The notes: generated by a model from the sequence alone, not told the origin. Counted from the first letter of the stretch, positions 2,788 through 49,050 are shown. The stretch is DNA of 64,000 bases from Herpetosiphon aurantiacus DSM 785 (GCA_000018565.1 CP000875.1:313199-377198); one strand, 5' to 3'. Program-made: numbers and translations.

Positions 2788-3827
2788 CGTGCTCCAAAGT
2801 TGACTGTCCAATAAATTTGGTATTCTGAATTGGGATTACGGGCGATCCCAACCCCAATTTCGCTGACATCGGCATATAGAATGTTGGCGCGATGACCTGG
2901 ACTTTGCATCCAAGCATCGATAATTGCTTGAGCATCGGTATAGCCAGCCGCTAAATTTTCGGCCCAAGCTCGCCATGAGTAGCCTACCCGTTGCATGCGC
3001 TGGCCTGCGTTCGAGCCATCGCTGCCAGTGTGCTCGAAAAAGTTGTTGCGAGCCATATCGTCGCTATGAATTTGGGCAGCTTGGTTGAGGGTTGGGTTGA
3101 TCGTCAAGCTGCTTAATCCAGCTTGGTTGCGTTGACGATTGATCGCATCAACCAAGGCTGTGATTTCGCTCGGATAGCTGGGGGTGGGCTGGGCTTTGAG
3201 TTCGGCTCCCAAACGGCCAAGCAGCACACCTTTTGCGCCATGATCTTCCAGCCGAGCGCGTTCAAACCACTGAGTCATCACCCAATCGCCATCGGGGTTT
3301 TGTTCGAGGAGTGGCTCGGTCAGCGGCAAGCCTAGCAAACTCAACGACTGTTCATAGGCATTCAACGAGCCATCAAGCAAGCCATGATTCAGCCAATAGC
3401 TCAAAAATGGTTCGCAAACTGAGCGCCCAGTTTCGTTAAATACTAAACAGCCTTGGGTGCTTGGGTTGGTTTTGGGAGCATTGCGCCAGTTGCCGTGGTT
3501 GCGTTCGTAGATTTCGGCTCCCAAACGGCCAAGCAGCACATCATAGGGCGCGGCCAATTCAGGGTGTAGCTCAAAGCGTTGGCGTTCAAAATATTGAGTT
3601 GTAAATGTGCCATTAGCAGTTGTTTCGCTTTGAGCAGGCGAGAGAGGATAGCCAAACACTGCCAAACCACCATTTTGTTGCCAATAGCTCAAAAAACGCC
3701 CACTAATACAATTGCTAATGCCTGGCACATCGGCAAAACACAGGCTGGTTTGGGCAGCAGCAGGTTTGGGGCTAAAACTCAAACTGCCGATAACCAAGAT
3801 CATCATCAATAGAAAACGTAGGCGCAT
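2784..3827 (-). CDS. Secreted CAP/SCP/PR-1 domain protein with two N-terminal ~80-aa repeats
   Basis: There is a signal peptide (MRLRFLLMMILVIGSLSFSPKPAAAQ). The C-terminus carries a CAP domain signature (GHRANILYADVSEIGVGIA). Tandem LLGRLGAE(I/L) repeats are present. An AAGGAG RBS precedes it. Confidence 0.7.
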   Translation of the reverse strand: MRLRFLLMMILVIGSLSFSPKPAAAQTSLCFADVPGISNCISGRFLSYWQQNGGLAVFGYPLSPAQSETTANGTFTTQYFERQRFELHPELAAPYDVLLGRLGAEIYERNHGNWRNAPKTNPSTQGCLVFNETGRSVCEPFLSYWLNHGLLDGSLNAYEQSLSLLGLPLTEPLLEQNPDGDWVMTQWFERARLEDHGAKGVLLGRLGAELKAQPTPSYPSEITALVDAINRQRNQAGLSSLTINPTLNQAAQIHSDDMARNNFFEHTGSDGSNAGQRMQRVGYSWRAWAENLAAGYTDAQAIIDAWMQSPGHRANILYADVSEIGVGIARNPNSEYQIYWTVNFGAR

Positions 3828-20209: not shown

Positions 20210-20237
20210 TGTCTCTTGGCGAGGCAGTCTGGAATAC

Positions 20238-21194
20238 ATGATGATGCAACCTAATCGACTCGATCTCTTCGCACGCCATCCAGCCAACCCGATTTTACAA
20301 GCAAGCGATTGGCCGTACCCGATTAATAGCGTGTTTAACCCTGGTGCAACCGTGCTCGCCGATGGGACGACCTTGTTATTATGCCGCGTTGAAGATCGGC
20401 GTGGCCATTCGCATTTTTGTGCAGCTCGCTCGGCCAATGGGCTTGATCATTGGCAAATTGATGCCCACCCAACCTTTGCCCCCGATCCACAGCAGTATCC
20501 CGAAGAACGCTGGGGGATTGAAGATCCACGCATTACCTATCTTGAGGAATTAGCGGCCTATGGGGTTGTATATACCTCCTATGCGACTGGTGGGCCTGGG
20601 GTTTCCTTGGCAACCACCACCGATTTCAAGACCTTTACCCGCTATGGGGTCGTGATGCAGCCCGAAAATAAAGATGCGGCGCTCTTTCCAGTGCGGATTA
20701 ACGGCTTATGGGCGATGATCCATCGCCCAATTGGCGCACAAGGGTCGCATATTTGGATGTCGCTCTCACCGGATTTGCGCCATTGGGGCCAACACCAATG
20801 TATGCTTGAGGCTCGTAAAGGCGGATGGTGGGATGCTAATAAAATTGGGTTGTCGCCACCGCCGATCGCCACCGAGGAAGGCTGGTTGATGATCTATCAT
20901 GGCGTTCGGATGACTCCTGGTGGGTGTCTCTATCGGCTTGGCGTAGCCCTGTTCGATACCGAACATCCTGAGCGCTGTCTGCGGCGTGGCGAACCATGGG
21001 TCTTGAGTCCGCACACGGAGTATGAACGCCATGGTGATGTCCCCAATGTGATTTTCCCCTGTGGCGTGACCGTCCTGCCGGATGGCGATACCCTCCATGT
21101 CTATTATGGAGCCGCCGATAGCTGCGTTGCGGTTGCGATTGGAAGTATTCGCCAGATTCTTGATTGGCTGACGATCTATGGAGTGGCGACGTAA
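20238..21194 (+). CDS. GH130 family glycoside phosphorylase/hydrolase (beta-mannoside phosphorylase-like)
   Basis: It has DUF377/GH130 signatures (WGIEDPRITY, IYHGV, and a beta-propeller). Its start overlaps the upstream gene's end. The start may be 20181 or 20238. Confidence 0.8.
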   Translation: MMMQPNRLDLFARHPANPILQASDWPYPINSVFNPGATVLADGTTLLLCRVEDRRGHSHFCAARSANGLDHWQIDAHPTFAPDPQQYPEERWGIEDPRITYLEELAAYGVVYTSYATGGPGVSLATTTDFKTFTRYGVVMQPENKDAALFPVRINGLWAMIHRPIGAQGSHIWMSLSPDLRHWGQHQCMLEARKGGWWDANKIGLSPPPIATEEGWLMIYHGVRMTPGGCLYRLGVALFDTEHPERCLRRGEPWVLSPHTEYERHGDVPNVIFPCGVTVLPDGDTLHVYYGAADSCVAVAIGSIRQILDWLTIYGVAT

Positions 21195-31994: not shown

Positions 31995-32033
31995 CGCGGC
32001 GGCAGTTCCACCTAACTGCCGCCGTTTTGTATT
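31995..32033 (+). terminator. Intrinsic terminator (GCGGCGGCAGTT...AACTGCCGCCG + TTTTGTATTT)
   Basis: It is a perfect 12-bp stem followed by a T-run. It sits between convergent genes. Confidence 0.6.
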
Positions 32034-33568
32034 TAACTATTCGATTTGGCAAATGGCAGATACATTCGGAAATTGAGGTTTGGTACAACCGTTGGTGTAC
32101 GGCTGGGGGTTATTGTCGCGGTTGGGGTGCGACTAGGCGTTATCGTGATGGTAGCTGGTGTGCCAGTCGAGGTACGGGTTGGGGTGTTGCTTGGAGTTGC
32201 GGTTGCAGTCCGCGTTGCTGTCGCAGTTGGGGTGCGCGTAATCGTCGGTGTGATAGTTGGGGTTGCCGTGCCGCCAGTGCCACTTTGGGCCATTTCATAT
32301 AAATTGGGAAAATTGCCCGTGAGTAATAACATGCTCAGCAAGCGCCAAGCATTGGGATAATAGCTGTTGGGCGTATCTTTGGTGGCGAGCACCGCATTGT
32401 ATGCTTGTTGCGGTGTGGTTTTGAGGCTGGCAGTTGCCGCACCACAATTGACTGCTTGCGGAGCTGGAGCCGCCCAAATTGCCGCCGCTGCGTTGGCGAC
32501 GAAGAATACGCCACGATAATTATCAACTGATGTGCCGTCAAGCCGATAGCGAGCTTGAATGTTGTCAATGCCCACGCTGCTGAAAAAACCACCAATTTCG
32601 TTCATGGTTTCGCGTGAGTTGCTGGTGTTGTACCACGCTTTGTCGATCGCGATGCGCCATGCAAACCGCGCTGCATCGTAGCTCCACCACGCCGATTCTT
32701 CTGGTTGCCACGATACATATTGCACATCGCCGTCATATTGATTCCAATTGGGCACAAGTTTCGAGCAATTGCCTGCTTTGGCTTGCACCAAATTGGTGAT
32801 AGCGTAGTTACGGGTGTTGACGGCGGCCCATTCAGTATTTTTGTTGGTGAATTTGCCAAAGACCGTGCTATAGCCAGGTGAAAAATAAGAAAGATTAACA
32901 ATACCTTGAGTATATTCGGTCGCGGTTGACCATGAATCACCTGGCAGTAGTTCGTTGCCTTGGTTATTGGGCAAGCCGGCGGGTGGGTTGCTGCCAGCAT
33001 GATCAACTTCATAGGTATAAATATTGTTGATCATGGTGCTGGCAAGCGTGCAATAATTCAGGCCATTGCTGCTAGCGGGCCAAACTCCTTGTTGCACTTT
33101 GATACAGGCATTGACCAGTCCCATGGCAATATCTTCATCGCCATCGGTTGCTGCGCCGCTGCCATTAATTTGGCCTGGATTGCCGATGTGCCAATGCATC
33201 AGGCCGCGGCTGGTAAAATAATCACGAGTGAAAAGCCACAAACCGTCGAAGGTTGCTTGATCATCGAATAATGAGGCGAAAAGCAAGCCATAGCCTTGGC
33301 CCTCAGAGACCGTGGTGCTATTGCTAACTCCGCCGAGTACCCGCAAACGTCCGCCACCACCAGCGTTGTTGCTGGTAATTTGAGCACTTTTCCATTCATT
33401 CCAAGCTTGAGTGAGATCGGTCACATTGTAGTTAATGCCCGAAGCTTGATTATAGGGAAAGCTAAATGCTTGCGGATTGGCGCTGGCCGATTGCTGACGG
33501 GGCAAGCTAAGGCCGAGACCAACCAACATAACCAAAATAAGCCAACGCGAGTGCAATGCTTGCTTCAT
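32033..33568 (-). CDS. GH8 family glycoside hydrolase (endoglucanase-like) with signal peptide and Pro/Thr linker but no CBM
   Basis: It has GH8 catalytic signatures (TVSEGQGYGLLFA, ATDGDEDIAMGLVNA). It is a paralog of 33652-35481. It ends with a PT-linker plus a 19-aa tail. Confidence 0.8.
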   Translation of the reverse strand: MKQALHSRWLILVMLVGLGLSLPRQQSASANPQAFSFPYNQASGINYNVTDLTQAWNEWKSAQITSNNAGGGGRLRVLGGVSNSTTVSEGQGYGLLFASLFDDQATFDGLWLFTRDYFTSRGLMHWHIGNPGQINGSGAATDGDEDIAMGLVNACIKVQQGVWPASSNGLNYCTLASTMINNIYTYEVDHAGSNPPAGLPNNQGNELLPGDSWSTATEYTQGIVNLSYFSPGYSTVFGKFTNKNTEWAAVNTRNYAITNLVQAKAGNCSKLVPNWNQYDGDVQYVSWQPEESAWWSYDAARFAWRIAIDKAWYNTSNSRETMNEIGGFFSSVGIDNIQARYRLDGTSVDNYRGVFFVANAAAAIWAAPAPQAVNCGAATASLKTTPQQAYNAVLATKDTPNSYYPNAWRLLSMLLLTGNFPNLYEMAQSGTGGTATPTITPTITRTPTATATRTATATPSNTPTRTSTGTPATITITPSRTPTATITPSRTPTVVPNLNFRMYLPFAKSNS

Positions 33569-33592
33569 CGAGGTTGCTCCTACACACAAAAA

Positions 33593-33620
33593 CAAGGATG
33601 CAGGCAAAACTGCATCCTTG
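33593..33620 (-). terminator. Hairpin (AAGGATGCAG...CTGCATCCTT) + U-run on the minus strand, 6 nt upstream of the GH8 RBS
   Basis: It is a 10-bp perfect stem. The minus strand reads ...CAAGGAUGCAGUUUUGCCUGCAUCCUUGUUUUUGUGUG. Confidence 0.45.
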
Positions 33621-33651
33621 CAATAAACCGACGGCTAGTATACCAACAATT

Positions 33652-35481
33652 CTATGGCGCAACGCTACAAGCTGTGCCATTCAGGCTAAAACTGGTTGGT
33701 TTGGGGTTGCTGCCATTGTAGCTGGCTTGGAAGCCAAAGCTGGCAGTGCCGCCACTACCAATATAGCCATTCCAGCCTACGTTATTGACGCTGACTGCTT
33801 GGCCAGTTTGGCTCACAGTTCCATTCCAGAGATTGTTAATTTGTTGATTGCCTGCGAAATTCCAGCGCACATTCCAATTGTTGATTGCTGTGCCGTTGTT
33901 GCGAATGCTTACATCGGCGGTAAAACCACTACCCCAATCGTTGCTGATGCTGTAGGTAATTTGGCATGCCCCAGCAATTGGCGTATTGGTTGGTGGCACG
34001 CTGGTCGGAACCGTGGTTGGAATCGGGGTCAGGGTTGGAATTGGGGTCAAAATCGGTGTGATTGTGACAGGGGTGTTGGTTGGCCGTGGTGTGCTGGTTG
34101 GCGGCACGGTTGTGTTGGTTGGTGGCACGTTGGTTGGAACCGCCGTGTTAGTTGGTGGCACACTGGTTGGCACAGGCGTGTTGGTTGGCGTAACACCGTT
34201 GGCCAATTCATAAATATTGGGGAAATTGCCAGTCAACAACAACATGCTCATCAAACGCCAAGCATTGACATAATATGAATTTGGCGAATCTTTGGTGGTC
34301 AACACCATATTGTAGGCTTGTTGCGGGCTGGTTTTGAGCGTGCCCGTTGCCGCGCCACAATTGATAGCTTGCGGTGCAGGAGCGGCCCAAATTGCGGCAG
34401 CAGCATTGGCGACGAAGAACACACCACGATAATTATCAACTGATGTGCCGTTCATCCGATAGCGAGCCTGCACATTTTCGATGCCCACGCTACTGAAGAA
34501 CCCCCCAACTTCGTTCATGGTTTCGCGTGAGCTGGCGGTGTTGTACCAAGCTTTATCGACGGCAACGCGCCATGCAAAGCGAGCAGCGTCATAGCTCCAC
34601 CAAGCATATTCTTCGGGCTGCCACGAAACTAATTGGGCATCACCATCATATTGGTTCCAGTTGGGCACAAGCTTCGAGCAGTTGCCTGGCCGCGATTGAG
34701 CGAGGTTGGTAATTTCATAATTGCGGGTGTTGACGGCTTCCCATTCGCTGGTCTTGCCCGTGAATTTACCAAATACCGTGAAATAGCCAGGCGAGAAATA
34801 CGAGAGATTGACGATGCCTTCGGGATAATCGCGGGCCAAATTCCAACCATCGCCGGGCAATAATTCGTTGCCTGGGTTGCTGGGCAAGCCAGCGACTGGC
34901 GATGAGCCTGGGTGATCAACTTCATAGGTGTAAATATTGTTGATCATGGTGGTGGCAAGGCTACAATAATCTAAGCCATTGCTGCTATTTGGCCAAACGC
35001 CCTTGCGTACTTTGACACAGGCATTGACGAGGCCGAGAGCAATATCTTCATCGCCATCGGTAGCGGCGTAGCTGCCGCGCAATTGGCCAGGATTGCCAAT
35101 GTGCCAGTGCATCAAGCCGTTGGGGTCAAGGTGATCGCGGGTGAACAACCACAACCCATCGAGGGTGGTTTGGTCGTCGAATAGCGAGGCAAACAAAATG
35201 CCATAGCCTTGGCCTTCGGAAACCGTCGATGAGCTATCGACCCCACCCATCACCCGTAGCCGATTACCGCCACCAGCGTTGTTGGCGGTGATCATGTTGC
35301 TTTTCCACTCGTTCCAAGCCTGCGTGAGATCGGTCACATTGTAGTTAATGCCCGAAGCTTGATTGTATGGGAATAATAATGGGCTAACACTATTGCCTTG
35401 GGCGGCTTTGGATTGCCACCATGGCACGGTCAGTAGCGTGAGCAACGCCACCATCAGCAACATTTTGCGATGCTTTAACAT
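33652..35481 (-). CDS. GH8 glycoside hydrolase with C-terminal CBM2
   Basis: It has a signal peptide, the GH8 motifs, a PT linker, and a CBM2 (CQITYSISNDWGSGFTADVSIRNNG...NGTACS). A GGAGG RBS precedes it. Confidence 0.8.
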   Translation of the reverse strand: MLKHRKMLLMVALLTLLTVPWWQSKAAQGNSVSPLLFPYNQASGINYNVTDLTQAWNEWKSNMITANNAGGGNRLRVMGGVDSSSTVSEGQGYGILFASLFDDQTTLDGLWLFTRDHLDPNGLMHWHIGNPGQLRGSYAATDGDEDIALGLVNACVKVRKGVWPNSSNGLDYCSLATTMINNIYTYEVDHPGSSPVAGLPSNPGNELLPGDGWNLARDYPEGIVNLSYFSPGYFTVFGKFTGKTSEWEAVNTRNYEITNLAQSRPGNCSKLVPNWNQYDGDAQLVSWQPEEYAWWSYDAARFAWRVAVDKAWYNTASSRETMNEVGGFFSSVGIENVQARYRMNGTSVDNYRGVFFVANAAAAIWAAPAPQAINCGAATGTLKTSPQQAYNMVLTTKDSPNSYYVNAWRLMSMLLLTGNFPNIYELANGVTPTNTPVPTSVPPTNTAVPTNVPPTNTTVPPTSTPRPTNTPVTITPILTPIPTLTPIPTTVPTSVPPTNTPIAGACQITYSISNDWGSGFTADVSIRNNGTAINNWNVRWNFAGNQQINNLWNGTVSQTGQAVSVNNVGWNGYIGSGGTASFGFQASYNGSNPKPTSFSLNGTACSVAP

Positions 35482-35646
35482 CAAACAACCTCCAAAAGAA
35501 CAATTGAGAAAAAAGAGGGCAGGCAATCAATTACTGCCGCCCTCAGTCTACTATTTATTAATATATTTAATGGATAGCCTAAAAGTCCCAAGTTAATATT
35601 TATTAAGCGATGCTCGCCAGCCGGCGCAAGCGAGCATCGTGGGAGC

Positions 35647-38211
35647 TTACTGGAACAAGCGATCGTATTCGGCGTAAGCCATTGCGATATCGGCCTGGGC
35701 CCAGAAGCGGTGGTAGGTGAAGGTTGGAGCAGGGCCACCGTTTAGGTAGGCTTGCACGGCTGGGAAGGCTGGATCATCTTCGTACTTGGTGCGAATGCTC
35801 AAGAAGGTTGATGAATTGTTGATTGGATCACCATTGGCCATGGTGCCAGTCCAGCCGTTTGGCACTGACACTGGATCATCGAAGCGGTTGTAATCGCGGC
35901 GGGTTTCGGGGTTCGCAACACCCTTATCATCGCGGTATTCTGACCACATACGGTCGATCAATTCTTTGGCCATGGTTTGTGAAGCGACATGTTGAGTGCC
36001 ATAGCGCTTGGTTGCAGCGCTGTAGTACATCAAGGTTTTGGCATAGGCGGCGGCAACACCAACGTCTTGGGTCTTATCGACGACCGTGACGTGCAAGTTG
36101 GTGTTAGCGGCTGGATTGCTGGCGTTCCAGGTAGCTGGTTGGCCGCTCCAAGCCAAGGTTGATGGAATTTCATAGCTGCCATTGCTGGTCAAGGTGGTGT
36201 TGGCCAAAGCCCAGGTTACCCACTTATCGAGCACGTTCTTGGCTTTGACATCGCCTGAAGCGTAGTAATATTCAGCGACCCGTTCCATCGACCAAGCTTG
36301 GAAACCAAACCAGGTGTTGCTAGCGGGATCGTGATAGACTGGTTTTTCGTCGTAGGCCATATTGTAGAAGGTGCTGGTTCCGGCTGGGGCTGCTTCGTAG
36401 CGGCCATTCCAGCTATTGGTAGCACCACCAGCGATGGCACCTTCGCTTGATTGCAACCAAGTATAGAACTCGATTTGGCGGGTCAAGCTGGTGTTCCAGT
36501 CGCGAGCGCCGTTGGTTGAAGCTGGCTTGAAGGCTGGTTGGCTGCCCAAAATCCAGGCTGCCATTGGGTTTTGGTAGCCAAAGTGATTGTGGCTGCTGCC
36601 GATGCGCCATGCCCAGCCACCACCATTGCCAATCGAACCACCCCAAGCGTAGTACCACGACAATAGGTAGTGAGCGCTGCTGTAGCCTGAACCAGCTGGA
36701 CATGAAGTTGAAGTACAGCCAATTTGCTTGAAGTACTTATCGAAGAAGGCGTAGCGCAAGTAGTCGCCCATCTTGGCGGCCTTGGTTACCAAACCATTGA
36801 CGATTGGTGAGCCACCTTGTTCGTCGGCCCATACTTTGGCCCAGTAAATCGCTTGGACAGCACGGGCATCAGCATCGGGGGCGTTGGTGTAGCGCCATTG
36901 GCGGGCATAGCTCGCATCGCCAGTGAACAAGTTCAAGAAGCCGAAGGGGCCGCCATCGTTGAAACTTTCCCACGATGGATGGGGCACGGTTTCCCAAACT
37001 GATTCTTGAGCGCCACGTTGGAAGGTGTTGATATATGATGGTTTGCTGGTGCCATCGCCACGGCGGCCATAGCCATACCAGTTATCAACGTCGAGCAACC
37101 AGTGCATGCCATAGACATCGCTGGTGCCATAAGCCGAGCGCAATTCAGCGGCGATTGGGTCTTGGCCAACTGAAACGTTGGTTTGCAATTGTGATGGATA
37201 TTGGCTGGGTAATTCCCATTCGCCAGCATAGGTGGCTGGGCTATTGGCATTATACGAACCACTGCTTGGTTGATCTTGGCTGGTTGGAATGATGTACATT
37301 TCCATGTTGCGCCAAGCATCGGCCAATGGTTGCCAATTGCCAGTTGCCTCACCGTACATCGCTTCGAGCCACAACCAATAGCTATAGGCTTCGGAAGTGG
37401 TTTCGTGGCCATAATCCGGAGCTTCGACAATCAAGGTTTCGATTGAGTGGTAGGGCACACCTTCAGGGCTGAAATAGCCATTAGCTGGGTTCTTCAACTC
37501 AGCATACATTTCCAAGAAGCGTTGATCGTAGGTATCATCGCCTGGTTGGGTTGGGGTGCTGGTTGGTGGCACAACCGTTGGGGTATTGGTGGGCCGTGGC
37601 GTGCTGGTTGGGCCGTTGGTCGCGGTTGGCGGCACAGCCGTATTAGTTGGGCGAGTTGTGCTAGTTGGTGGCACAGCCGTATTAGTTGGTGGTACGGTTG
37701 TGTTAGTTGCCCGTGGTGTATTGGTTGGTACAACTACCGTGTTGGTTGGGCGGGTGGTTGCGGTTGGTGGAGTGGTTGCGGTTGGGTTCGGATTCGTTTC
37801 ACCACAAACCACACCATTTAATGTAAACACCGTTGGGATTGCATTAGCACCGCTGTAGGTTCCTTGGAAGCCAAAGTTGACTGCACCACCACTGCTGATC
37901 GTGCCGTTCCAGCCTGCGTTACGCACGCTTACTTGGTTGCCAGTTTGGGTTACAATCCCACTCCAGAGGTTGGTAATTTGCTGATTGCCAGCGAAACTCC
38001 AGCCAACCGTCCAGCTACTGATGGCTGCACCATTATTTTGAATATTAACATCGCCGAGGAAGCCACTGCCCCAATCGTTGGGAATGCGATAGGTGACCAC
38101 ACAACTGGCAGCGGCGGCGGTTGGCTTGGCATTCTGGGTGGTCAACAGGCCACCAATCATCGTTAGCAGCGCTAACAGCATCGCCCCTCGGGCGTAATAG
38201 TGCCGAGACAT
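35647..38211 (-). CDS. GH48 family cellobiohydrolase (exoglucanase) with N-terminal CBM2
   Basis: It has a signal peptide, a CBM2 ([25 protein letters not shown]), a PT linker, and GH48 signatures ([42 protein letters not shown]). Confidence 0.85.
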
Positions 38212-38386
38212 ACATACTCCTTGGGTAAATGAAAAGTTCAGAGACAATACGAAGCGAACCTCTGCCCAATCGACGGCAGAGCTATCTATTTCCATACAAC
38301 TGGTTTAGCGAATTCAGGGCAATGGTTGGATCAAACAGCGCGGATTGTTCAATCGAACCATTGCCGAGGCTTGGCTAATTCGTTGG

Positions 38387-41161
<2,775 letters not shown>

Positions 41162-41275
41162 CTAAATGATTCATTGCGACTTGTCAAGCGTAAATTTTAA
41201 AAAGTTTTTAGATTTGGATTTAGGCTCTTCTGAAGCGCTAAAAAGCTACTACATACCTATTAAGAGAGCTAGAGC

Positions 41276-41325
41276 GTGTTTTCAGAAAACACCTGCTTGA
41301 CAAAATACATAAGATCTTTTATTCT
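41276..41325 (+). promoter_or_regulatory. Palindrome GTGTTTTC-a-GAAAACAC followed by promoter TTGACA-N17-TATTCT for the LacI gene
   Basis: It has a perfect 8-bp-arm inverted repeat that abuts a consensus -35. Confidence 0.4.
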
Positions 41326-41385
41326 CTCCCTAAGACTTCTGAGACCGGTTCCAAAGTAATTTAAATCAGTTTGTGGGGTTTCGCC

Positions 41386-42408
41386 GTGGAACAACTCACG
41401 ATTCGCCAAATAGCCCAACTTGCCAATGTTTCACGCTCGACCGTTTCGCGGGTAATCAACAATCATCCCAGCGTGCGGCCCGAAGTGCGACAACGGGTGT
41501 TGGAAGTTATTCGCGAACAAGACTATGTTCCGCAGGCAGCCGCTCGTAGTCTGGCAAGCCGCCGAACCAATGTGGTGACCCTGTTGATCCCACGCAGCTC
41601 GGCAATTATCTTCACTGACCCATTCTTCCCATTAATCATCCAAGGAATTACCGAAACCTGTTCTGAGCGGGATTATTCGGTGATGCTTTCGATGGTGACT
41701 GGCACCCAAGAACGGGATTTCTATCAGCGGGTATTACGCAGTCGGATGACCGACGGTCTGTTGATGCTTTCGAGCGATATTGATGACCCAGTGTTACCCT
41801 TGCTGATTAACGACCAAATGCCGTTGGTCTTAATCGGCGAACACCCGTATATGCAGCCAATGTATACCGTTGACGTGGCAAATCGGGCCGGGGCAGTGCT
41901 AGCAGTCAGCCATTTATTGCAACTTGGCCATCGACGGATTGGGGCGATTACAGGCCTACTGCAGATGAAAACCGCCATTGATCGCCGTGACGGCTATAAG
42001 CAAGCGTTATTGCAAGCAGGCGTTGCCATCGAGCATTCGTTGATGATCGAGGGCGAATTTACCCAAGAGGGTGGCTATGCTGCAATGCGCCAATTGCTCA
42101 GCCTTGAACAGCGACCAAGCGCTGTCTTTGTGGCCAGCGACACCATGGCATTAGGAGCCTTACGGGCTATTTACGAGGCCGGGTTACATGCTCCCCACGA
42201 TATTTCGCTGATCGGCTTTGATGATGTGCCAGGCGCGGCCTATACAACCCCCGCCCTGACGACGATTCACCAACCAATTCAGAAGCTTGGTAGTACCGCC
42301 GCCACGATGTTGCTTGACCATCTCGAAGGGCGACCACCGCTCCAGCAACACATCCGTCTCTCACCTTCGTTAGTCTTACGCCAATCGTGCGGGCCACGGG
42401 TCGCCTAA
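41386..42408 (+). CDS. LacI-family transcriptional regulator (CelR-like)
   Basis: It has an HTH (LTIRQIAQLANVSRSTVSRVINNH) and a periplasmic-binding-fold sugar domain. The start is either GTG at 41386 or TTG at 41371. Confidence 0.8.
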   Translation: MEQLTIRQIAQLANVSRSTVSRVINNHPSVRPEVRQRVLEVIREQDYVPQAAARSLASRRTNVVTLLIPRSSAIIFTDPFFPLIIQGITETCSERDYSVMLSMVTGTQERDFYQRVLRSRMTDGLLMLSSDIDDPVLPLLINDQMPLVLIGEHPYMQPMYTVDVANRAGAVLAVSHLLQLGHRRIGAITGLLQMKTAIDRRDGYKQALLQAGVAIEHSLMIEGEFTQEGGYAAMRQLLSLEQRPSAVFVASDTMALGALRAIYEAGLHAPHDISLIGFDDVPGAAYTTPALTTIHQPIQKLGSTAATMLLDHLEGRPPLQQHIRLSPSLVLRQSCGPRVA

Positions 42409-42460
42409 ACAGCACCCACGGATTCACTAGATCGCATGGTCTGTCGAACACGGGAGTTTT

Positions 42461-42474
42461 TGGGAGCGATCCCA
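42461..42474. promoter_or_regulatory. Palindromic CelR-type operator TGGGAGCGATCCCA upstream of ABC transporter
   Basis: It matches 13 of 14 positions of the T. fusca CelR consensus. It is 62 nt upstream of the SBP start. Confidence 0.55.
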
Positions 42475-42535
42475 AATGAGTTCGAATGGACACTGATGTT
42501 CAACCCACTCAACGCCGGAATCAAGGAGGATTCGT

Positions 42536-43996
42536 ATGCAACGCTCACGCCGTCCGTTTATTACTTGGCTAAGCCTCTTAACTCTGATTTCAATGATCTT
42601 GGTTGCTTGTGGTGGAGCTGAGACCGCTCCCACTGCAACCACTGCTCCAGCTGCTACCGCTACGACTGCGGCTCAAGTTGAACCAACTGCTGCTGATGCT
42701 CCAACCGAAGTTGCCGCAACCGCTGAACCAGCAACCGCTGAGCCAGCTGGTGGCGATGTTGTTACCTTGAAGCTGTGGCACATGCCTAACGGTGCTGCTC
42801 CAGCCGATGCCATCCAAGCTGAAATCGATGCCTTCGAAAAAGCTAACCCCGGCATTAACGTTGAGCCAGAAATGCTCGACTGGGGTGCAGCTTTCCAACG
42901 CATCCAAACCTCGGTTCAAGGTGGTGAAGGCCCATGTATTACCCAATTGGGTACGACCTGGAACCCAACCTTTGCGGCAATGGGTGGCTTACGCCCATTC
43001 ACCGAAGAAGAAATCACCGCTATGGGTGGCAGCGATAGCTTCGTCGCCGCTTCATGGGCAACCTCACAATTGCAAGGTATGGAAGGTACATTCTCGATTC
43101 CATGGTTTGCTGATGTTCGCGCCTTGGCCTATCGCAAAGACTTGTTGGAAAAAGCTGGCTTGAAGCCAGAAGAAGCCTTCAAGGATTGGGCCAGCTTCAA
43201 AACGACCTTGGCTACCATCCAAGAACAAAATCCTGACGTTGCTGGGATCGCTTTCCCAGGCCGCAACGACTGGAACGTTTGGCAAAATAGCTCAATGTGG
43301 ATTTGGAACAGCGGTGGCGATTTGTTGAGCAGCGATCTCAGCGAAGCAACCTTCAACTCAGAAGCAGCTGTGGCTGGGGTTTCAGAATTTGCTAACCTCT
43401 ACAGCAGCAAATTGACCGTTACCAATACCTTGGAATTGAACTCAGCCCAAGTTGATGCCAGCTTTGGCGATGGCCGCACCTTTAGCGCAATCACTGGCCC
43501 ATGGTTGATCAGCAACGCTCGCACTGCTGCCGACGCTGGTGGCTGGGCTAACCGCACCGTGGCCGATAACTTGGCCTACGCCGAATTCCCAGCTGGCCCT
43601 GGTGGCTCATACACCTTCGTTGGTGGTAGCAACTTGGCCATCTTGAAGAGCTGCGAAAACGCCGATGCCGCTGTCAAGTTCGTGCAATTCTTGGCTGCTA
43701 ACGAATCACAATTGCGCTATAGCCAAGCCATCGGGATGTTGCCAGCAACCAAGACCGCTCAAGCCGATGCTAGCATCGCCAGCGATGCCTTGTACAGCGT
43801 CTTCATCGCCGCTGCTGCTAAGGGCAAAACCTCAGCTCCAATCGCTGAATGGGGTCAAGTCGAGAGCGTTCTCAACGAACAACTTGGTTCACTCTGGGAC
43901 GATGTAGCAACCGCTGGCGGTCCAGTTAGCGCTGAAGTCGTCAAGACCCGCTTGGATCAAGCTGCTCAAACTGTCAACGAATTGTTGGGTAACTAA
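42536..43996 (+). CDS. ABC transporter solute-binding lipoprotein (carbohydrate/cellodextrin type)
   Basis: It has a lipobox (LVAC) and an Ala/Thr/Pro-rich tether. It has the SBP family 1 fold. An AAGGAGG RBS precedes it. Confidence 0.8.
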   Translation: MQRSRRPFITWLSLLTLISMILVACGGAETAPTATTAPAATATTAAQVEPTAADAPTEVAATAEPATAEPAGGDVVTLKLWHMPNGAAPADAIQAEIDAFEKANPGINVEPEMLDWGAAFQRIQTSVQGGEGPCITQLGTTWNPTFAAMGGLRPFTEEEITAMGGSDSFVAASWATSQLQGMEGTFSIPWFADVRALAYRKDLLEKAGLKPEEAFKDWASFKTTLATIQEQNPDVAGIAFPGRNDWNVWQNSSMWIWNSGGDLLSSDLSEATFNSEAAVAGVSEFANLYSSKLTVTNTLELNSAQVDASFGDGRTFSAITGPWLISNARTAADAGGWANRTVADNLAYAEFPAGPGGSYTFVGGSNLAILKSCENADAAVKFVQFLAANESQLRYSQAIGMLPATKTAQADASIASDALYSVFIAAAAKGKTSAPIAEWGQVESVLNEQLGSLWDDVATAGGPVSAEVVKTRLDQAAQTVNELLGN

Positions 43997-44074
43997 TCGG
44001 ACGAGTGACGTGGCGCAGGGTGTTTGCTCACTGCGCCACGCCCACCACTGCATCCACGCAATGGAGCGACGTTT

Positions 44075-45052
44075 ATGGCTCTGGCACCAAAAAAAAATAA
44101 ACTCTCACTCTGGCAACGGATTCGGCAAAACAGCCTAGCATATAAATTTATCGCTCCAACCTTTGTGGCGATGATGATTGTGCACTTGATTCCGATTGTC
44201 CAAGGGTTGTATCTTTCACTCCTCGATGTTCGCCTTACAACCTTAACCCTCTATCTCAAAGCACCATTTGTTGGGCTAAAATACTACATCGAAGTCTTCA
44301 ACGCGATCTTTGGCATTGGTGAAGCTGGCGCAAGCTCGCGGGTAACAGGCCTAATTAATGCTGCCTCAAATACATTAGTCTATACCATTTGGACCAATAT
44401 TGGCACACTCGGCTTGGGCTTGATTCTGGCCATGCTGCTGAATCGTGAATTCCGCTGGCGTGGGATTGCCCGCACCCTCGTGTTGTTGCCGTGGGTTGTG
44501 CCAACCTTCGTGACTGGGACAATCTTCAACTTTATTTGGCTCGAACAAGGTGGCCTTGCCAATAAAATCTTGCTTGGCTTGAATATCGTTGATACCCCAG
44601 TAACTTGGTTGATTGGCCCGAATTCCTTGTATGCTTTGGTGATTGCCACGGTTTGGCGTGGTTTACCCTTCACCACAATTATGTTCCTCGCGGCAATTCA
44701 GGTGATTCCAACCGACCTCTATGAAGCAGCTTCGCTCGATGGAGCTAACGGCTGGCAGCGCTTTCGCCATATTACCTTGCCGTTGATTAAGCCAATTGCC
44801 GGAACCCAAGTGTTGTTTGGCTTGATTAACGGTTTCTATGGTGGCTATAATATTGCCGTGCAAATGTTCGGCGGTGGTACCGGTTTCGCAGGCGAATACG
44901 CCGACTTGCTCGTACCAGCAATTACTCGCCAAACATGGGAACGTCACTTATATGGATTTGGTTCGGCAGCCTCAGTGATTCTGATGGGCATGCTGTTGGT
45001 CTTTGTTGGCATTTGGTATCGTGCATTCCGCGATAGCTTGCGGGCTGAATAA
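44075..45052 (+). CDS. ABC sugar transporter permease (MalF/UgpA-like)
   Basis: It has an EAA-like loop and 6 TM segments. The start is the ATG at 44075, which has a GGAG RBS. Confidence 0.8.
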   Translation: MALAPKKNKLSLWQRIRQNSLAYKFIAPTFVAMMIVHLIPIVQGLYLSLLDVRLTTLTLYLKAPFVGLKYYIEVFNAIFGIGEAGASSRVTGLINAASNTLVYTIWTNIGTLGLGLILAMLLNREFRWRGIARTLVLLPWVVPTFVTGTIFNFIWLEQGGLANKILLGLNIVDTPVTWLIGPNSLYALVIATVWRGLPFTTIMFLAAIQVIPTDLYEAASLDGANGWQRFRHITLPLIKPIAGTQVLFGLINGFYGGYNIAVQMFGGGTGFAGEYADLLVPAITRQTWERHLYGFGSAASVILMGMLLVFVGIWYRAFRDSLRAE

Positions 45053-45063
45053 GGAGGCCGTTT

Positions 45064-45957
45064 ATGGGTGTTTCGCTCAGTAAAAAGGCCGAATCGGCCC
45101 GACCTGCACGCGCAACGATCAATTACAAAGCATGGTTACTTGATCGTGGTGGCGATATCCTATTGCTGGTGATCATTGCCTTGATGTTGTTGCCAATTAT
45201 CTTCTTGGTGGTTGGCTCATTCAAATCGCGTGAAGAGTTCGCAGTTGGCAGTAATTTCTTTCCAAGCGACTGGCGATTTGAAAATTATAGCGAGATGTGG
45301 ACACGGGTTAAGTTTGGTACATATTTCAGCAATAGCTTAATTATTTGTGGCATTACCACCTTGGTTGTCACGATTTTGGCATCGATGTCGGGCTATGCCT
45401 TGGCACGATTCCGCTTCCCGGGTGCTGGCGGGTTGAGTATGGCGATTTTGGGAACCCAATTAGTGCCTGGCACGCTGTTCCTGATTCCGTTGTATATGAC
45501 CTTCCTTTGGATGAAAAATAACCTTGGAATTCCTTTGATTGGCACCAATTTTGGCGCGATTGTGCTGTATGTTGGGTTCTTTTTGCCAATCTCGCTCTGG
45601 ATTCAGCGCAGTTTCTTTGCGACGATTCCGATAGATTTGGAAGAACAGGCCATGGTCGATGGGGCAACTCGCTTCCAAGCTTTTGTCTATATCGTTATGC
45701 CATTGGCAGGCCCAGGCGTGATTTCAACCGCGATCTTTGTGTTCTTGACTGCATGGGACGAATTGTTGTTCGCATGGGTCTTGAATGTTCAAACGATTCC
45801 GGTCGGGATTCGCCAATTTACGGGGGTGGCTGGCTCGCAAAATCGCTACGAGTTGCTTTCGGCAGCCTCGGTGGTGATTATTCTGCCAGTTGCTGCGATG
45901 TTCTTCCTATTGCAAAAGCGTTTTATCGCTGGCCTCACTGCTGGCGCAGTCAAATAG
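45064..45957 (+). CDS. ABC sugar transporter permease (MalG/UgpE-like)
   Basis: An AAGGAGG RBS precedes it. It has 6 TM segments. Confidence 0.8.
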   Translation: MGVSLSKKAESARPARATINYKAWLLDRGGDILLLVIIALMLLPIIFLVVGSFKSREEFAVGSNFFPSDWRFENYSEMWTRVKFGTYFSNSLIICGITTLVVTILASMSGYALARFRFPGAGGLSMAILGTQLVPGTLFLIPLYMTFLWMKNNLGIPLIGTNFGAIVLYVGFFLPISLWIQRSFFATIPIDLEEQAMVDGATRFQAFVYIVMPLAGPGVISTAIFVFLTAWDELLFAWVLNVQTIPVGIRQFTGVAGSQNRYELLSAASVVIILPVAAMFFLLQKRFIAGLTAGAVK

Positions 45958-46081
45958 ATTTATTTTCTCAACAACCAGAACAAAGGCGTGTAGACTTTGG
46001 CGTTGCTGAGGTCTGCACGCCGATTTGTATCTGTATCGATCAGTGTTTGGGCACAGCACCCAAACATAGGAGCACAGGATC

Positions 46082-48406
46082 ATGACCGAACAACGCCACC
46101 ATTCCTCAATTCCTCTCGCTGCGTGGCAACGCCCACTTGGCCTCGATTATCCGAATGCGGCGATTGCCGCCCACGATCATGGGCCGATTATTGACGATGG
46201 AGTCTTTCATGGTTTGCCAATTGGTGGCATGGGTAGCGGGGCGATTGGCCGCAACTTTCGCGGCGATTGGTCACGCTGGCATTTAGAGGTTGGCAAGCAC
46301 GTACATCGCAGCGTTTGGCCGAATCAATGGAGTGTTTTCTGGCAAACCGCCAGTCAACAAGCCGCCCAAGTTTTATGCACGACCCAACCAGATACCGATG
46401 AATTGAGTAGCTGGAACTGGAATTATCCAGTTGGCGCTGGCAATTATCATGCACTTTTCCCCCGCGCTTGGTTCGATTATCAACACCCCGATTGGCCACT
46501 GGAATTGGTTCAAGAGCAATTTTCGCCTGTTTTGGCGGGTAATCTCAAGGAAAGCAGCTTTCCCGTTGGCGTGTTTACCTGGCGCGTAACCAATCGTGGC
46601 AGCGAAACCGTGCGTTTGGGATTGATGCTGACATGGGAACATACCCGTGCGGTCGAAGCTGCTGGCTTAAGCTTGCAACGCCAACACAGCGCTTGGAACG
46701 ACGGTAACACCAGCGGCGTAACCTTGACCCAAACCAGCGATCAAGCCTTGAGCAGCCATAATGGCACTTGGGCTTTGGCGGTGCAAGCCCCCGAATCGGC
46801 CAGCGTCAGTCAATGGACATGCTGGGATGTTGCGCAAGATGCTGCCGCGCTCTGGCAAGATTTTGCCAGTGACGGCCAATTAGCCGACTATCCAACCAGC
46901 CAAAAAGTTGCTGCCGATCAACGCAGCGCAACGGCAATTGCCGTCACCCTCGAATTAGCGCCTGGTGCTAGCGCCGTGATTCCCTTCAGCCTCGCTTGGG
47001 ATTTTCCAATTGTCGAGTTTGCTGATCAAAGCCGCTGGTACAAGCGCTATACCCGTTTTTGGGGCACGAACGGCGATCAAGCTCAAGCCTTGGCGGTTGC
47101 TAGTTTGACCAATGCTGATGCTTGGCGTACAGCAATTGAAGCATGGCAAAACCCCATTCTTGCTGATGATCAACGGCCATTTTGGTATAAATCTGCTCTT
47201 TTTAACGAACTCTATTATTTGGTTGATGGTGGTACGTTGTGGGTTGATCGGGCGGTTGGCGGGCCGGAGCCTGCGGCTGATGATGTGGGCTTGTTCAGCT
47301 ACCTCGAATGCTACGACTACCCGTTCTATGGCACGCTCGATGTGTCGTTCTACAGCTCGTGGAGCATCTTGGCCTTGTGGCCAGAGCTTGAACGCGGCGA
47401 GATTTTGGCCTTCTCCAAAACGGTTAACGATGCTGATGATACCGTTGTCACAATTGTGGCAACTCAAGTCCCAGCAATTCGCAAGGCCGCTGGCGCATTG
47501 CCGCATGATCTTGGTGCGCCCAAAGAGCAACCATTAATCAAAACCAATGCCTACGACTTCCAAGATATCAATAACTGGAAAGATCTCAACCTCAAGTATA
47601 TTTTGCGAATCTATCGTGATGTGAGCTTGTGGAACGATCAGGCCATGCTGGAAGCAACTTGGGACACAATTCCAACTGCTTTAGAATATGTGCATCAATT
47701 CGATAGTGATGGCGATGGCTTGCTCGACCATAGTGGAGCCGACCAAACCTACGATACCTGGGCCATGAGCGGCGCGGCCAGCTATTCGGCAAGCTTGCTG
47801 ATTTGTGCCTTGGAAGCTGCGATTCGCCTAGCCCAACGCATGGGCGACCATGCCCAAGCCGATGCTTGGAGTGAATGGCTGGCCGCGGCTCGCCAAAGTT
47901 TTGAAACTAAGCTTTGGAATGGTACTTACTTCCGCTATCACACCGCTGATACTGATTTGCGCGAAGTGATTATGGCCGATCAATTGGTGGGCCAATGGTA
48001 TGCAGGCGCAATTGGCTTGCCAGCGGTTGCTCCACGCGAGATGATTCGCTCGGCCTTGCAAACGGTCTATCGCTTCAACGTCATGCAATATGCCAACGGC
48101 GCATTGGGTGCAGTCAACGGCATGCATCCAGATGGCACGGTTGATACCAGCTCCAACCAAGCCAGCGAAGTTTGGAGCGGCACGACCTATGCGATTGCGG
48201 CCATGATGCTGCAAGAAGGGCTTGATCTTGAAGGCTGGCAAACCGCTTGGGGAGCCTATAACGCCACCTATAATGAACTTGGATTGTGGTTTCGCACACC
48301 GGAAGCATGGGGCATCGAACGAACTTTCCGTGCCAGCATGTACATGCGACCACAATCAATCTGGGCGATTGAGCATGCCTTAGCGGTGCGTGCTAAAAAC
48401 GCCTGA
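46082..48406 (+). CDS. GH116 (GBA2-type) beta-glucosidase, cytoplasmic
   Basis: Its N-terminal motif GLPIGGMGSGAIGRNFRGDWSRWHL matches the GBA2/TxGH116 family. The C-terminal part is an (alpha/alpha)6 domain. There is no signal peptide. Confidence 0.7.
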   Translation: MTEQRHHSSIPLAAWQRPLGLDYPNAAIAAHDHGPIIDDGVFHGLPIGGMGSGAIGRNFRGDWSRWHLEVGKHVHRSVWPNQWSVFWQTASQQAAQVLCTTQPDTDELSSWNWNYPVGAGNYHALFPRAWFDYQHPDWPLELVQEQFSPVLAGNLKESSFPVGVFTWRVTNRGSETVRLGLMLTWEHTRAVEAAGLSLQRQHSAWNDGNTSGVTLTQTSDQALSSHNGTWALAVQAPESASVSQWTCWDVAQDAAALWQDFASDGQLADYPTSQKVAADQRSATAIAVTLELAPGASAVIPFSLAWDFPIVEFADQSRWYKRYTRFWGTNGDQAQALAVASLTNADAWRTAIEAWQNPILADDQRPFWYKSALFNELYYLVDGGTLWVDRAVGGPEPAADDVGLFSYLECYDYPFYGTLDVSFYSSWSILALWPELERGEILAFSKTVNDADDTVVTIVATQVPAIRKAAGALPHDLGAPKEQPLIKTNAYDFQDINNWKDLNLKYILRIYRDVSLWNDQAMLEATWDTIPTALEYVHQFDSDGDGLLDHSGADQTYDTWAMSGAASYSASLLICALEAAIRLAQRMGDHAQADAWSEWLAAARQSFETKLWNGTYFRYHTADTDLREVIMADQLVGQWYAGAIGLPAVAPREMIRSALQTVYRFNVMQYANGALGAVNGMHPDGTVDTSSNQASEVWSGTTYAIAAMMLQEGLDLEGWQTAWGAYNATYNELGLWFRTPEAWGIERTFRASMYMRPQSIWAIEHALAVRAKNA

Positions 48407-48502: not shown

Positions 48503-48961
48503 CTACCAACTTTCGACCAAATCCTTGGCTTCTTTCAAGCTCAGTTTGGTTGCTTCACGCACCATTTTGATCGCCTGAATTTTATTGCCTTGCTGGGCAA
48601 CAATTTGGGCTTCACGCAAGAGATCTTCGGGAAGTTGCAGCACTGGTGGCTCAACCACGACTGGGCTAAGCGGGCTTTGGCCACGCTCGATTGCTTCGAC
48701 ATAATCTTTGGCTTCTTTTAGGCCAAGGCTCGTTTGGAGCCGAACGTGTTTGATGGCCTCAAGCTTTTTGCCTTGGCTTAGCAACAGCTGAATTTGAGCT
48801 TGATCAAGTTTGGCTGAATCGAAACTTGGTGTTTGCGTTGGTTTGATTGGTGGTTGATTGAAGTTGATCATGCTGCTGGGGCGTTCGGAGCGTTTACTCC
48901 AACTCCACAGCATTAAGCCCATCACGACTGCGATTGAAATCCATAAAATTGCACTTGACAT
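48503..48961 (-). CDS. Membrane-anchored protein with two ribosomal L7/L12 C-terminal-domain-like repeats
   Basis: It has an N-terminal TM segment (ILWISIAVVMGLMLWSW). Two repeats are present: KLEAIKHVRLQTSLGLKEAKDYVE and KIQAIKMVREATKLSLKEAKDLVE. An AAGGA RBS precedes it. Confidence 0.5.
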   Translation of the reverse strand: MSSAILWISIAVVMGLMLWSWSKRSERPSSMINFNQPPIKPTQTPSFDSAKLDQAQIQLLLSQGKKLEAIKHVRLQTSLGLKEAKDYVEAIERGQSPLSPVVVEPPVLQLPEDLLREAQIVAQQGNKIQAIKMVREATKLSLKEAKDLVESW

Positions 48962-49050
48962 CGTGTTGATCCTTTTAATTAAGTTAATTAAGCCCTTGCT
49001 CAAAAGTGTACTGTAAGCTCTCCAGAATCGCTAGCGATCAAAGAGCGCTT

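Follow-up and report, generated by a model that had tools for sequence, protein, structure and literature searches.

A predicted CebR-type cellulose utilization regulon with a GH116 beta-glucosidase in Herpetosiphon aurantiacus

A locus of nine open reading frames (ORFs) was examined by computational analysis within a 64,000-nucleotide stretch of DNA (the window; GCA_000018565.1, CP000875.1, positions 313199 to 377198) from Herpetosiphon aurantiacus DSM 785, a member of the Chloroflexota. Four genes for secreted cellulases (two of family GH8, here termed GH8a and GH8b, one of GH48 and one of GH9) and a second arm encoding a LacI-family regulator, the solute-binding protein (SBP) and two permeases of an ATP-binding cassette (ABC) importer, and a GH116 glycosidase diverge from a common intergenic region of ~460 bp. 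We consider it probable (about 0.8) that this locus is the CebR-type, cello-oligosaccharide-inducible core cellulose utilization regulon of the host. The reading is carried by gene families, catalytic residues, signal peptides, operators with phylogenetic footprints and conserved synteny, all of which were shown by computation.

The features of the locus are listed in Table 1. The ORF finder reported maximal ORFs, and the starts were refined to those preceded by a ribosome-binding site (RBS). The RBS-backed starts of GH8a, GH8b, GH48, GH9, the LacI-family gene and permease 1 matched the gene calls of public contigs. An initial annotation of the window had reported nine ORFs, and these were recovered at the same coordinates with exactly the Pfam families that it claimed. 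It had also described the cellulase genes as reading towards the regulator block, and here the opposite was seen, as transcription of these genes runs away from that block.

Table 1. Features of the cellulose utilization locus and, in the last rows, features of distant GH116 loci from the distribution survey
Feature	Position	Strand	Maximal ORF	Remarks
GH8a	32033..33568	minus	32033-33607	Pfam GH8 (8e-37); secreted, endoglucanase-like; 511 aa from ATG at 33568; signal peptide; RBS
Terminator-like hairpin with T-run	33592..33621	minus		Between GH8b stop and GH8a RBS
GH8b	33652..35481	minus	33652-35526	GH8, Pro/Thr linker, CBM2; 609 aa; Pfam GH8 (8e-36), CBM2 (3e-32); signal peptide
Terminator-like hairpin with T-run	35509..35544	minus		Between GH48 and GH8b RBS
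GH48	35647..38211	minus	35647-38295	CBM2-linker-GH48, exoglucanase type; 854 aa; Pfam GH48, 1053 bits, 619/619 of profile
GH9	38387..40927	minus	38387-41062	GH9-CBM3c-linker-CBM2 (Pfam GH9, CBM3, CBM2), processive endoglucanase type; 846 aa; RBS GGAAGGAG; signal peptide
CebR-type operator TGAGACCGCTCCCA	41042..41055			GH9 5' leader, ~+97 from predicted promoter
CebR-type operator TGAGATCGCTCCCA	41118..41131			GH9 5' leader, ~+21 from predicted promoter
Predicted sigma-70-type GH9 promoter	41159..41187	minus		TTGACA-17-TAGGAT; invariant block in six genomes
Predicted LacI promoter	41297..41325	plus		TTGACA-17-TATTCT; invariant save one position in six genomes
CebR-type operator TGAGACCGGTTCCA	41340..41353			Directly 3' of regulator promoter (autoregulation)
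LacI-family repressor Haur_0297	41386..42408	plus	41371-42408	Pfam LacI helix-turn-helix, Peripla_BP_3
CebR-type operator TGGGAGCGATCCCA	42461..42474			Upstream of SBP start codon
SBP	42536..43996	plus	42536-43996	Pfam SBP_bac_1; lipoprotein, lipobox LVAC (LVAC/GG); Ala/Thr/Pro linker; CbpB/betaGlyBP cellodextrin and beta-glucoside type
Intragenic CebR-type operator TGAGACCGCTCCCA	42619..42632			SBP codons 28-33
ABC permease 1	44075..45052	plus	44024-45052	CUT1, MalF/UgpA-like; Pfam BPD_transp_1, NCBIfam
ABC permease 2	45064..45957	plus	45064-45957	MalG-like; Pfam, NCBIfam
17-pair hairpin	45985..46021	plus		Between permease 2 and GH116
GH116	46082..48406	plus	46082-48406	774 aa; no signal peptide; N-terminal and catalytic domains, PF12215 (1e-88) and PF04685 (3e-131), both full length
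Intervening gene, locus L017	7622-9016			GH1
Intervening gene, locus L055	7891-9837			GH9 and CelD_N
Intervening gene, locus L059	4949-5971			GH26-like
Intervening gene, locus L071	7692-8720			GH26-like
Variant palindrome TGAGAGCGCTCTCA				L031, L033, L036, L057, L058, L065, L067, L070, L073-L075, L078-L081, L084

CebR-type operators and the regulator

The palindrome TGGGAGCGCTCCCA is the 14-bp consensus of the CebR box in Streptomyces and Thermobifida; it governs cellulase genes and the cebR-cebEFG-bglC (GH1) genes in Streptomyces and T. fusca, with cellobiose and cellodextrins as inducers (PMC4358012, PMC3538285). A search of the window with this actinobacterial CebR/CelR box detected one copy with a single mismatch, located 62 bp 5' of the SBP start, and further copies with two mismatches close to the start of GH9. 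A second search utilized a locally derived pattern, TGRGANCGNTCCCA, with at most one mismatch and produced 11 strand matches against 0.48 expected; all were inside the locus, and none of 100 shuffles reached 11. Five sites were regarded as credible. These differed from TGGGAGCGCTCCCA at one or two positions, but the site at the regulator gene had four mismatches to the strict consensus. Alignments of six Herpetosiphon genomes indicated that the five boxes and the two predicted promoters are invariant islands amid variable flanks. For the box inside the SBP gene, 14 of 14 positions were invariant in the six genomes while the adjoining linker codons varied and contained an indel.

No box was detected upstream of GH48, GH8b or GH8a at up to two mismatches, and the sole nearby three-mismatch hit (38491) lies in the GH9 coding sequence. 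Two hits to the motif TGAGATCGGTCACA, at 33412 and 35325, were set aside. They lie ~150 nucleotides inside the GH8 coding sequences, where they encode VTDLT, and the double occurrence is due to the paralogy of the two GH8 genes. Conservation of these hits was compared in one other species, which gives too little power.

The N-terminal sequence of the regulator is that of Haur_0297 of strain ATCC 23779, a member of regulog 4804. This computational regulog ("Caur_1157"), which lists Haur_0297, spans three of five Chloroflexi genomes; its annotation reads "beta-glucosides utilization," and a beta-glucoside is the effector predicted for it (Ravcheev et al. 2014, PMC4052901). NCBIfam naming was uninformative for the regulator, for which only generic LacI-family matches below the cut-off were obtained, and for the SBP and GH116, the matches being far below the cut-offs. 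The description of the regulator as CelR-like in the initial annotation was upheld by the CebR/CelR-type operators at the GH9, regulator and SBP genes. These support a regulator that is putatively CebR/CelR-like in function.

Secreted cellulases

An exo-acting GH48, a processive endo-acting GH9-CBM3c and two GH8 enzymes had been proposed for the cellulase arm, and both Pfam and the relatives of known structure supported this set. The GH9 protein aligned with E4/Cel9A of T. fusca (PDB 1JS4; 6e-258) in one stretch covering the catalytic domain and CBM3c, with residues 85-706 on E4 residues 1-605. Residues D55, D58 and E424, in the DAGD and NEV motifs, were retained and were identical to those of E4 in the alignment; these are the catalytic residues in E4 numbering. 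Judged by these comparisons, the architecture is that of a processive endoglucanase. For GH48, Cel48 structures of Caldicellulosiruptor and Hahella were matched at ~1e-270 (4L0G at 5e-274; Hahella 4FUS), and the homology indicates a full-length enzyme of the cellobiohydrolase type. The nearest named relatives of GH48 outside the Chloroflexota were actinobacterial CBM2-GH48 proteins with 61 to 68% identity, including those of Streptomyces, Sphaerisporangium and Nonomuraea, and some myxobacterial proteins.

Both GH8 proteins were closest to CelA of Clostridium thermocellum, which was the best PDB match of GH8b (1CEM, 1e-46), and the SEG, DGDED and YDA motifs were retained. We take the Glu of SEG and the Asp residues of DxDED and YDA to be the catalytic residues of CelA. 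The pair fell in a Chloroflexota-dominated clade whose GH8 domains are fused to a CBM2 or a CBM3. Among cellulose, chitosan and xylan as possible GH8 substrates, the CBM2 of GH8b favors cellulose.

Sec-type signal peptides were found on all four cellulases and no dockerin or cohesin module was matched by Pfam in any of them, in agreement with their initial description as free rather than cellulosomal enzymes. A claim that all four carry Pro/Thr linkers and CBM2 stood in part: CBM2 was present in three of the four, but GH8a ends in a Pro/Thr tail of ~90 residues with no CBM2 (Pfam and translation of the 524-aa maximal ORF). The CBM-less form is not an artifact, because GH8a of H. llansteffanensis (506 aa) likewise has no CBM. 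A Thermobifida-type enzyme lineage, which had also been proposed, was a fair description given the actinobacterial affinity of GH48 outside its own phylum, the host itself belonging to the Chloroflexota.

Transcription units and hairpins

The terminator-like hairpins before GH8a and GH8b were conserved in H. llansteffanensis, with changes confined to the loops. These hairpins could act as leaky terminators and thereby set the ratios of expression, or they could be attenuators in the leaders; no Rfam family reached threshold anywhere in the window, so no recognized riboswitch or attenuator was present at them. Immediately 5' of the GH8a hairpin there is a candidate extended -10 element, TGGTATACT. 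The spacer between GH9 and GH48 contains a conserved hairpin without a T-run, which makes co-transcription of the two genes plausible, and GH48 is probably carried on the GH9 transcript. In the other arm, the 17-pair hairpin between permease 2 and GH116 was kept in six genomes with two one-sided GC/GU changes and is possibly an RNA stabilizer or a leaky terminator. A second short hairpin lies directly before the GH116 RBS.

Two observations concern the sequences flanking GH48. Upstream of the gene, ~100 nucleotides (38215-38315, minus strand) showed 100% identity when H. aurantiacus was compared with H. llansteffanensis, exceeding the identity of the flanking coding sequences. This block contains a hairpin (38260-38281), lacks a CebR box and may be an unrecognized regulatory element. 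In the first hairpin 3' of the GH48 stop (35600-35645, minus strand), pairing was kept in H. llansteffanensis despite a largely different stem, a comparison of two sequences that suggests compensatory change.

Importer and GH116 beta-glucosidase

The best PDB relatives of the SBP were betaGlyBP of Thermus thermophilus (7C63 series, 1e-88) and CbpB of C. thermocellum (7X0I, 2e-79). The structure of Streptomyces CebE, 8BFY, was not among the best 60 of 69 PDB matches, and the importer was therefore regarded as analogous to CebEFG and not as its orthologue. Both CbpB and betaGlyBP bind cellobiose to cellopentaose (G2-G5) at micromolar Kd, with values of 0.56 to 1.9 μM for CbpB, and both also bind laminaribiose; clusters of this type characteristically have no ATPase gene (PMC9601137). 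No ABC ATPase gene was detected in the 64-kb window, and no LSGGQ signature was present in any frame. Two earlier claims, of an ABC importer and of a "complete" cellulose locus, were therefore sustained for the SBP, the two permeases, the enzymes, the regulator and GH116 but not for the ATPase, which is not encoded in the window. A second beta-glucosidase was not found in the window, the part beyond 54.8 kb being judged by public gene calls only.

GH116 aligned with TxGH116 of Thermoanaerobacterium xylanolyticum (PDB 5BVU) over residues 6-764 at 1e-201. In TxGH116, E441 is the nucleophile, D593 is the acid/base and the -1 subsite consists of D452, H507, T591, E777, R786 and R792 (PMC10167657). 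All of these are identical in the Herpetosiphon enzyme, the catalytic pair being E409 and D558 and the subsite being D420, H475, T556, E741, R750 and R756, and all were invariant in an alignment of 25 homologues. The enzymes differ at the +1 contact, where Y62 of TxGH116 is replaced by Gly, and the Herpetosiphon host is a mesophile. Work on TxGH116 has been enzymological, and no account of its genomic role was given in the literature searched. Because its catalytic and subsite residues are identical to those of TxGH116 and invariant in homologues, GH116 is very probably an active cytoplasmic beta-glucosidase. The kcat/Km values of TxGH116 are 178 mM-1 s-1 for cellobiose and 113 mM-1 s-1 for laminaribiose (PMC10167657), and we infer that the Herpetosiphon enzyme acts on cello-oligosaccharides. 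The initial proposal of a cytoplasmic GH116 in the locus was borne out by the position of the gene as the last of the transporter operon, by the conserved catalytic machinery and by the failure to detect a signal peptide or membrane anchor on the protein.

Distribution of the cassette in the Chloroflexota

A survey of GH116 was performed with one genome per species and covered 80 loci, mostly of the Chloroflexota; neighborhoods were counted at the 60 loci for which the upstream sequence extended over at least 5 kb. The GH116 protein was identical on 18 public contigs and was 95 to 96% identical in H. geysericola, H. giganteus, H. llansteffanensis and Herpetosiphon sp. NSE202. The full order of GH48 and GH9 with a divergent LacI-SBP-permease-permease-GH116 arm recurred in five further species of Herpetosiphon, as well as in a Herpetosiphonaceae metagenome-assembled genome (MAG) whose GH116 has 63% identity, and the arrangement is therefore not due to chance. 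In two further Herpetosiphonaceae MAGs GH116 was beside GH9 and GH48 in another order, and in Thermoflexus GH48 was nearby.

A homologous LacI-family gene was present upstream of GH116 on the same strand in 45 of the 60 loci, LacI and permease genes accompanied GH116 in 41, and a CebR-type box was detected at the start of the LacI gene in 33. Across all 80 loci, 79 boxes were present in 1.37 Mb, compared to ~0.5 expected, and 55 of these were at a LacI gene start. The LacI genes of 13 distant Chloroflexota loci had the perfect TGGGAGCGCTCCCA consensus. The LacI-ABC-GH116 cassette with the same box was spread over several classes of the phylum, and GH116 was directly 3' of the second permease gene in most cassettes. 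The pairing with GH116, which had been called unusual, is so in comparison with the Streptomyces, Thermobifida and Clostridium models, but these counts indicated that LacI-ABC-GH116 is common in the Chloroflexota. The feature specific to the Herpetosiphonaceae is the physical linkage of the cassette to a cellulase set.

In Limnocylindrales-type cassettes, a variant palindrome, TGAGAGCGCTCTCA, was detected ~60 to 70 bp upstream of the LacI gene (loci in Table 1), apparently a change of the operator code specific to that lineage. The possibility that distant cassettes share one particular additional hydrolase between permease 2 and GH116 was considered and rejected, as the intervening gene varied (GH1, GH9, GH26-like or unknown); this variation indicated that the content of the cassette is modular. 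Among the GH116 homologues, P0021, P0035, P0052, P0056 and P0061 (~1015 to 1222 aa) were fusions to an alpha/beta-hydrolase, dienelactone-hydrolase-type or GH39-like domain.

Proposed mechanism and alternative explanations

In the proposed mechanism, the Cel9A-type GH9, GH48 and the two CelA-like GH8 enzymes would be exported by the Sec pathway and would attack cellulose outside the cell, with CBM2 anchoring three of the four to the substrate. The lipid-anchored SBP of the CbpB/betaGlyBP type would capture the released cellobiose and cellodextrins, the two-permease ABC system would import them with a borrowed ATPase encoded elsewhere, and cytoplasmic GH116 would hydrolyze them to glucose. Haur_0297 is predicted to bind the five 14-bp palindromes, of which two are in the GH9 leader, one follows its own promoter and two flank the SBP start codon, and to block transcription from these operators, sited downstream of promoters, until sugar appears. 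Cellobiose or a cellodextrin would presumably release the repressor, so that the enzymes, the importer and the repressor would be induced together. The substrates, the inducer, repression and the co-regulation of GH48 and the two GH8 genes are the parts of this mechanism that we infer.

Several points weigh against this reading. No experimental work on any protein of the locus was found. Furthermore, GH48, GH8b and GH8a have no convincing upstream box of their own and terminator-like hairpins precede both GH8 genes, which makes the regulon membership of these three genes uncertain. GH9 or GH48 was present within 10 kb in only 7 of the 60 GH116 loci. Finally, the substrates of the importer and of GH116 may extend to a wider range of beta-glucosides, as TxGH116, betaGlyBP and CbpB also accept laminaribiose.

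The last two points also favor the strongest of the alternatives, in which the LacI-ABC-GH116 arm is a general uptake module for beta-glucosides or beta-1,3-gluco-oligosaccharides (laminaribiose, sophorose, aryl-glucosides) that merely adjoins the cellulase genes. As a predator of microbes, Herpetosiphon might use such a module mainly for glucans of prey or of fungal walls. The efficiency of TxGH116 with laminaribiose is nearly that with cellobiose in the values given above, the accessory genes of other cassettes vary (GH1, GH26-like, GH9), and the published regulog names beta-glucosides and not cellobiose. Against this, two further copies of the operator that controls the cassette lie in the GH9 leader, where they are invariant in six genomes, the synteny of cellulases and cassette is kept throughout the genus and in the relative with 63% identity, and the same box marks cellulose regulons in the Actinobacteria. 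We regard this alternative as unlikely. The two views are compatible, since a broad specificity could include cellodextrins.

A second alternative is that the locus is an actinobacterial island of recent acquisition, a Thermobifida- or Streptomyces-like donor having supplied the cellulases together with the regulator and the operator. The CBM2 modules and Pro/Thr linkers, the very close similarity of GH9 to E4, the actinobacterial relatives of GH48 and an operator consensus identical to that of CebR would all fit such a transfer. However, the GC content of the locus (0.49 to 0.54) equals the window background of ~0.51, the locus is syntenic in all sampled Herpetosiphon species and in a family-level MAG, and the boxed LacI-ABC-GH116 cassette is spread across several Chloroflexota classes. 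The SBP is CbpB/betaGlyBP-like, 8BFY being absent from the best 60 of its 69 PDB matches, and the hydrolase is GH116 and not GH1. A recent island is thus improbable, and ancient transfer of individual cellulase genes is possible.

The least probable alternative, and by our estimate a very improbable one, is that GH116 acts on glycolipids (glucosylceramide-type, GBA2-like) or on other substrates than cellodextrins and that the real cellobiase is encoded elsewhere in the genome. In favor of this, databases label the homologues of GH116 "non-lysosomal glucosylceramidase," the family includes xylosidase, GlcNAc-ase and arabinanase members (with an exo-arabinanase among the PDB matches) and the search for further beta-glucosidases (GH1, GH3, GH94) was confined to the window. 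Against it, the full-length match to the TxGH116 clade is far better than the matches to arabinanase entries and to those of the human GBA2 type, all residues of the glucose -1 subsite are retained in a protein with no export or anchoring signal, and GH116 closes a sugar-importer operon in 41 of the 60 loci.

Relation to known systems and significance

The regulon proposed for H. aurantiacus most resembles the CebR (CelR) regulon of Streptomyces and Thermobifida, in which a LacI-family repressor acts with the TGGGAGCGCTCCCA palindrome at cellulase, transporter and regulator genes; the box has one or two mismatches here and is perfect in related Chloroflexota loci. In both systems the operon encodes a lipid-anchored SBP and two permeases but not the ATPase (MsiK-like sharing), its last gene specifies a cytoplasmic beta-glucosidase, and the cellulases include CBM2-GH48 and GH9 enzymes. 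They differ in phylum, in the use of GH116 here versus the GH1 enzyme BglC, and in the lineage of the SBP (CbpB/betaGlyBP versus CebE). The cellulase genes are clustered beside the regulator here and dispersed there, and the Herpetosiphon locus has two GH8 genes and no GH6, GH5 or AA10 gene. The importers of C. thermocellum (transporter B, with CbpB) and T. thermophilus (betaGlyBP) resemble the present one in SBP homology and in clusters without an ATPase gene. Unlike it, they supply GH94 phosphorylases or enzymes of family GH1, and the literature searched reports no CebR box for them. Regulog 4804 contains Haur_0297 itself with predicted control of beta-glucoside utilization, and the accessible part of that source draws no link to CebR/CelR, cellulases or GH116 (PMC4052901).

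The locus is thus a mosaic of known modules (operator and cellulases of actinobacterial type, an importer of the CbpB type, and GH116) and not a new kind of system. The five CebR/CelR-type operators at the locus are new here; the computational regulog entry of the regulator was already known. As the parts are individually known and the regulator was already in a computational regulog, the advance is incremental. No paper linking GH116 with Herpetosiphon or with CebR was found in the literature searched, coverage of which was incomplete, making this weak evidence of novelty.

Most of what is known of family GH116 comes from human GBA2 and from a single bacterial member that has been studied enzymologically. 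The odds appear about even that GH116, and not GH1, GH3 or GH94, is the standard cytoplasmic cello-oligosaccharide (beta-glucoside) hydrolase of the CebR-box LacI-ABC cassette across the Chloroflexota. If so, the intracellular step of cellulose use would be the first clear physiological role for a bacterial GH116, and the operator shared by Actinobacteria and Chloroflexota would reflect either an ancient, shared circuit for sensing cello-oligosaccharides or inter-phylum transfer of a regulator with its sites. Confirmation would also mean that the CebR/CelR operator code reaches a second phylum, such that cellulose-responsive genes of uncultured Chloroflexota could be predicted from sequence. 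Herpetosiphon is a cellulolytic soil genus that was strongly labeled from 13C-cellulose (PMC8545098). For this abundant soil cellulose degrader, the locus looks like core machinery and would offer a compact model for cellulolysis outside the Actinobacteria and Firmicutes.

Other features of the window

Housekeeping genes flank the locus; EF-G and MurJ are encoded to one side of it, and the genes to the other side specify an L7/L12-like protein, an epimerase and a histidine kinase with a GAF domain. These neighbors indicated that the locus boundaries given by the initial annotation are right. The GC content was ~51% along the window, with no step at the locus. An actinobacterial origin of the window was rejected on the basis of this GC content, the Chloroflexota relatives of GH116 and the 100% identity of GH48 to the protein of H. 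aurantiacus DSM 785.

The small L7/L12-like protein (48503-49003, minus strand) has an N-terminal transmembrane helix and two tandem repeats, KKLEAIKHVRLQTSLGLKEAKDYVE and NKIQAIKMVREATKLSLKEAKDLVE, that resemble part of the C-terminal domain of ribosomal L7/L12. Its identity across Herpetosiphon species was ~60%, compared to >93% for its neighbors. Elsewhere in the window (17867-21194, plus strand), a gene for a 780-aa GT4-family glycosyltransferase overlaps by 29 nucleotides a gene of GH130, the beta-mannoside phosphorylase family, and the two are possibly a coupled synthesis and recycling pair. A gene for a STAND-type NB-ARC/TPR NTPase (4040-6229, plus strand) adjoins one for a CAP (cysteine-rich secretory protein family) domain protein (2784-3827, minus strand).

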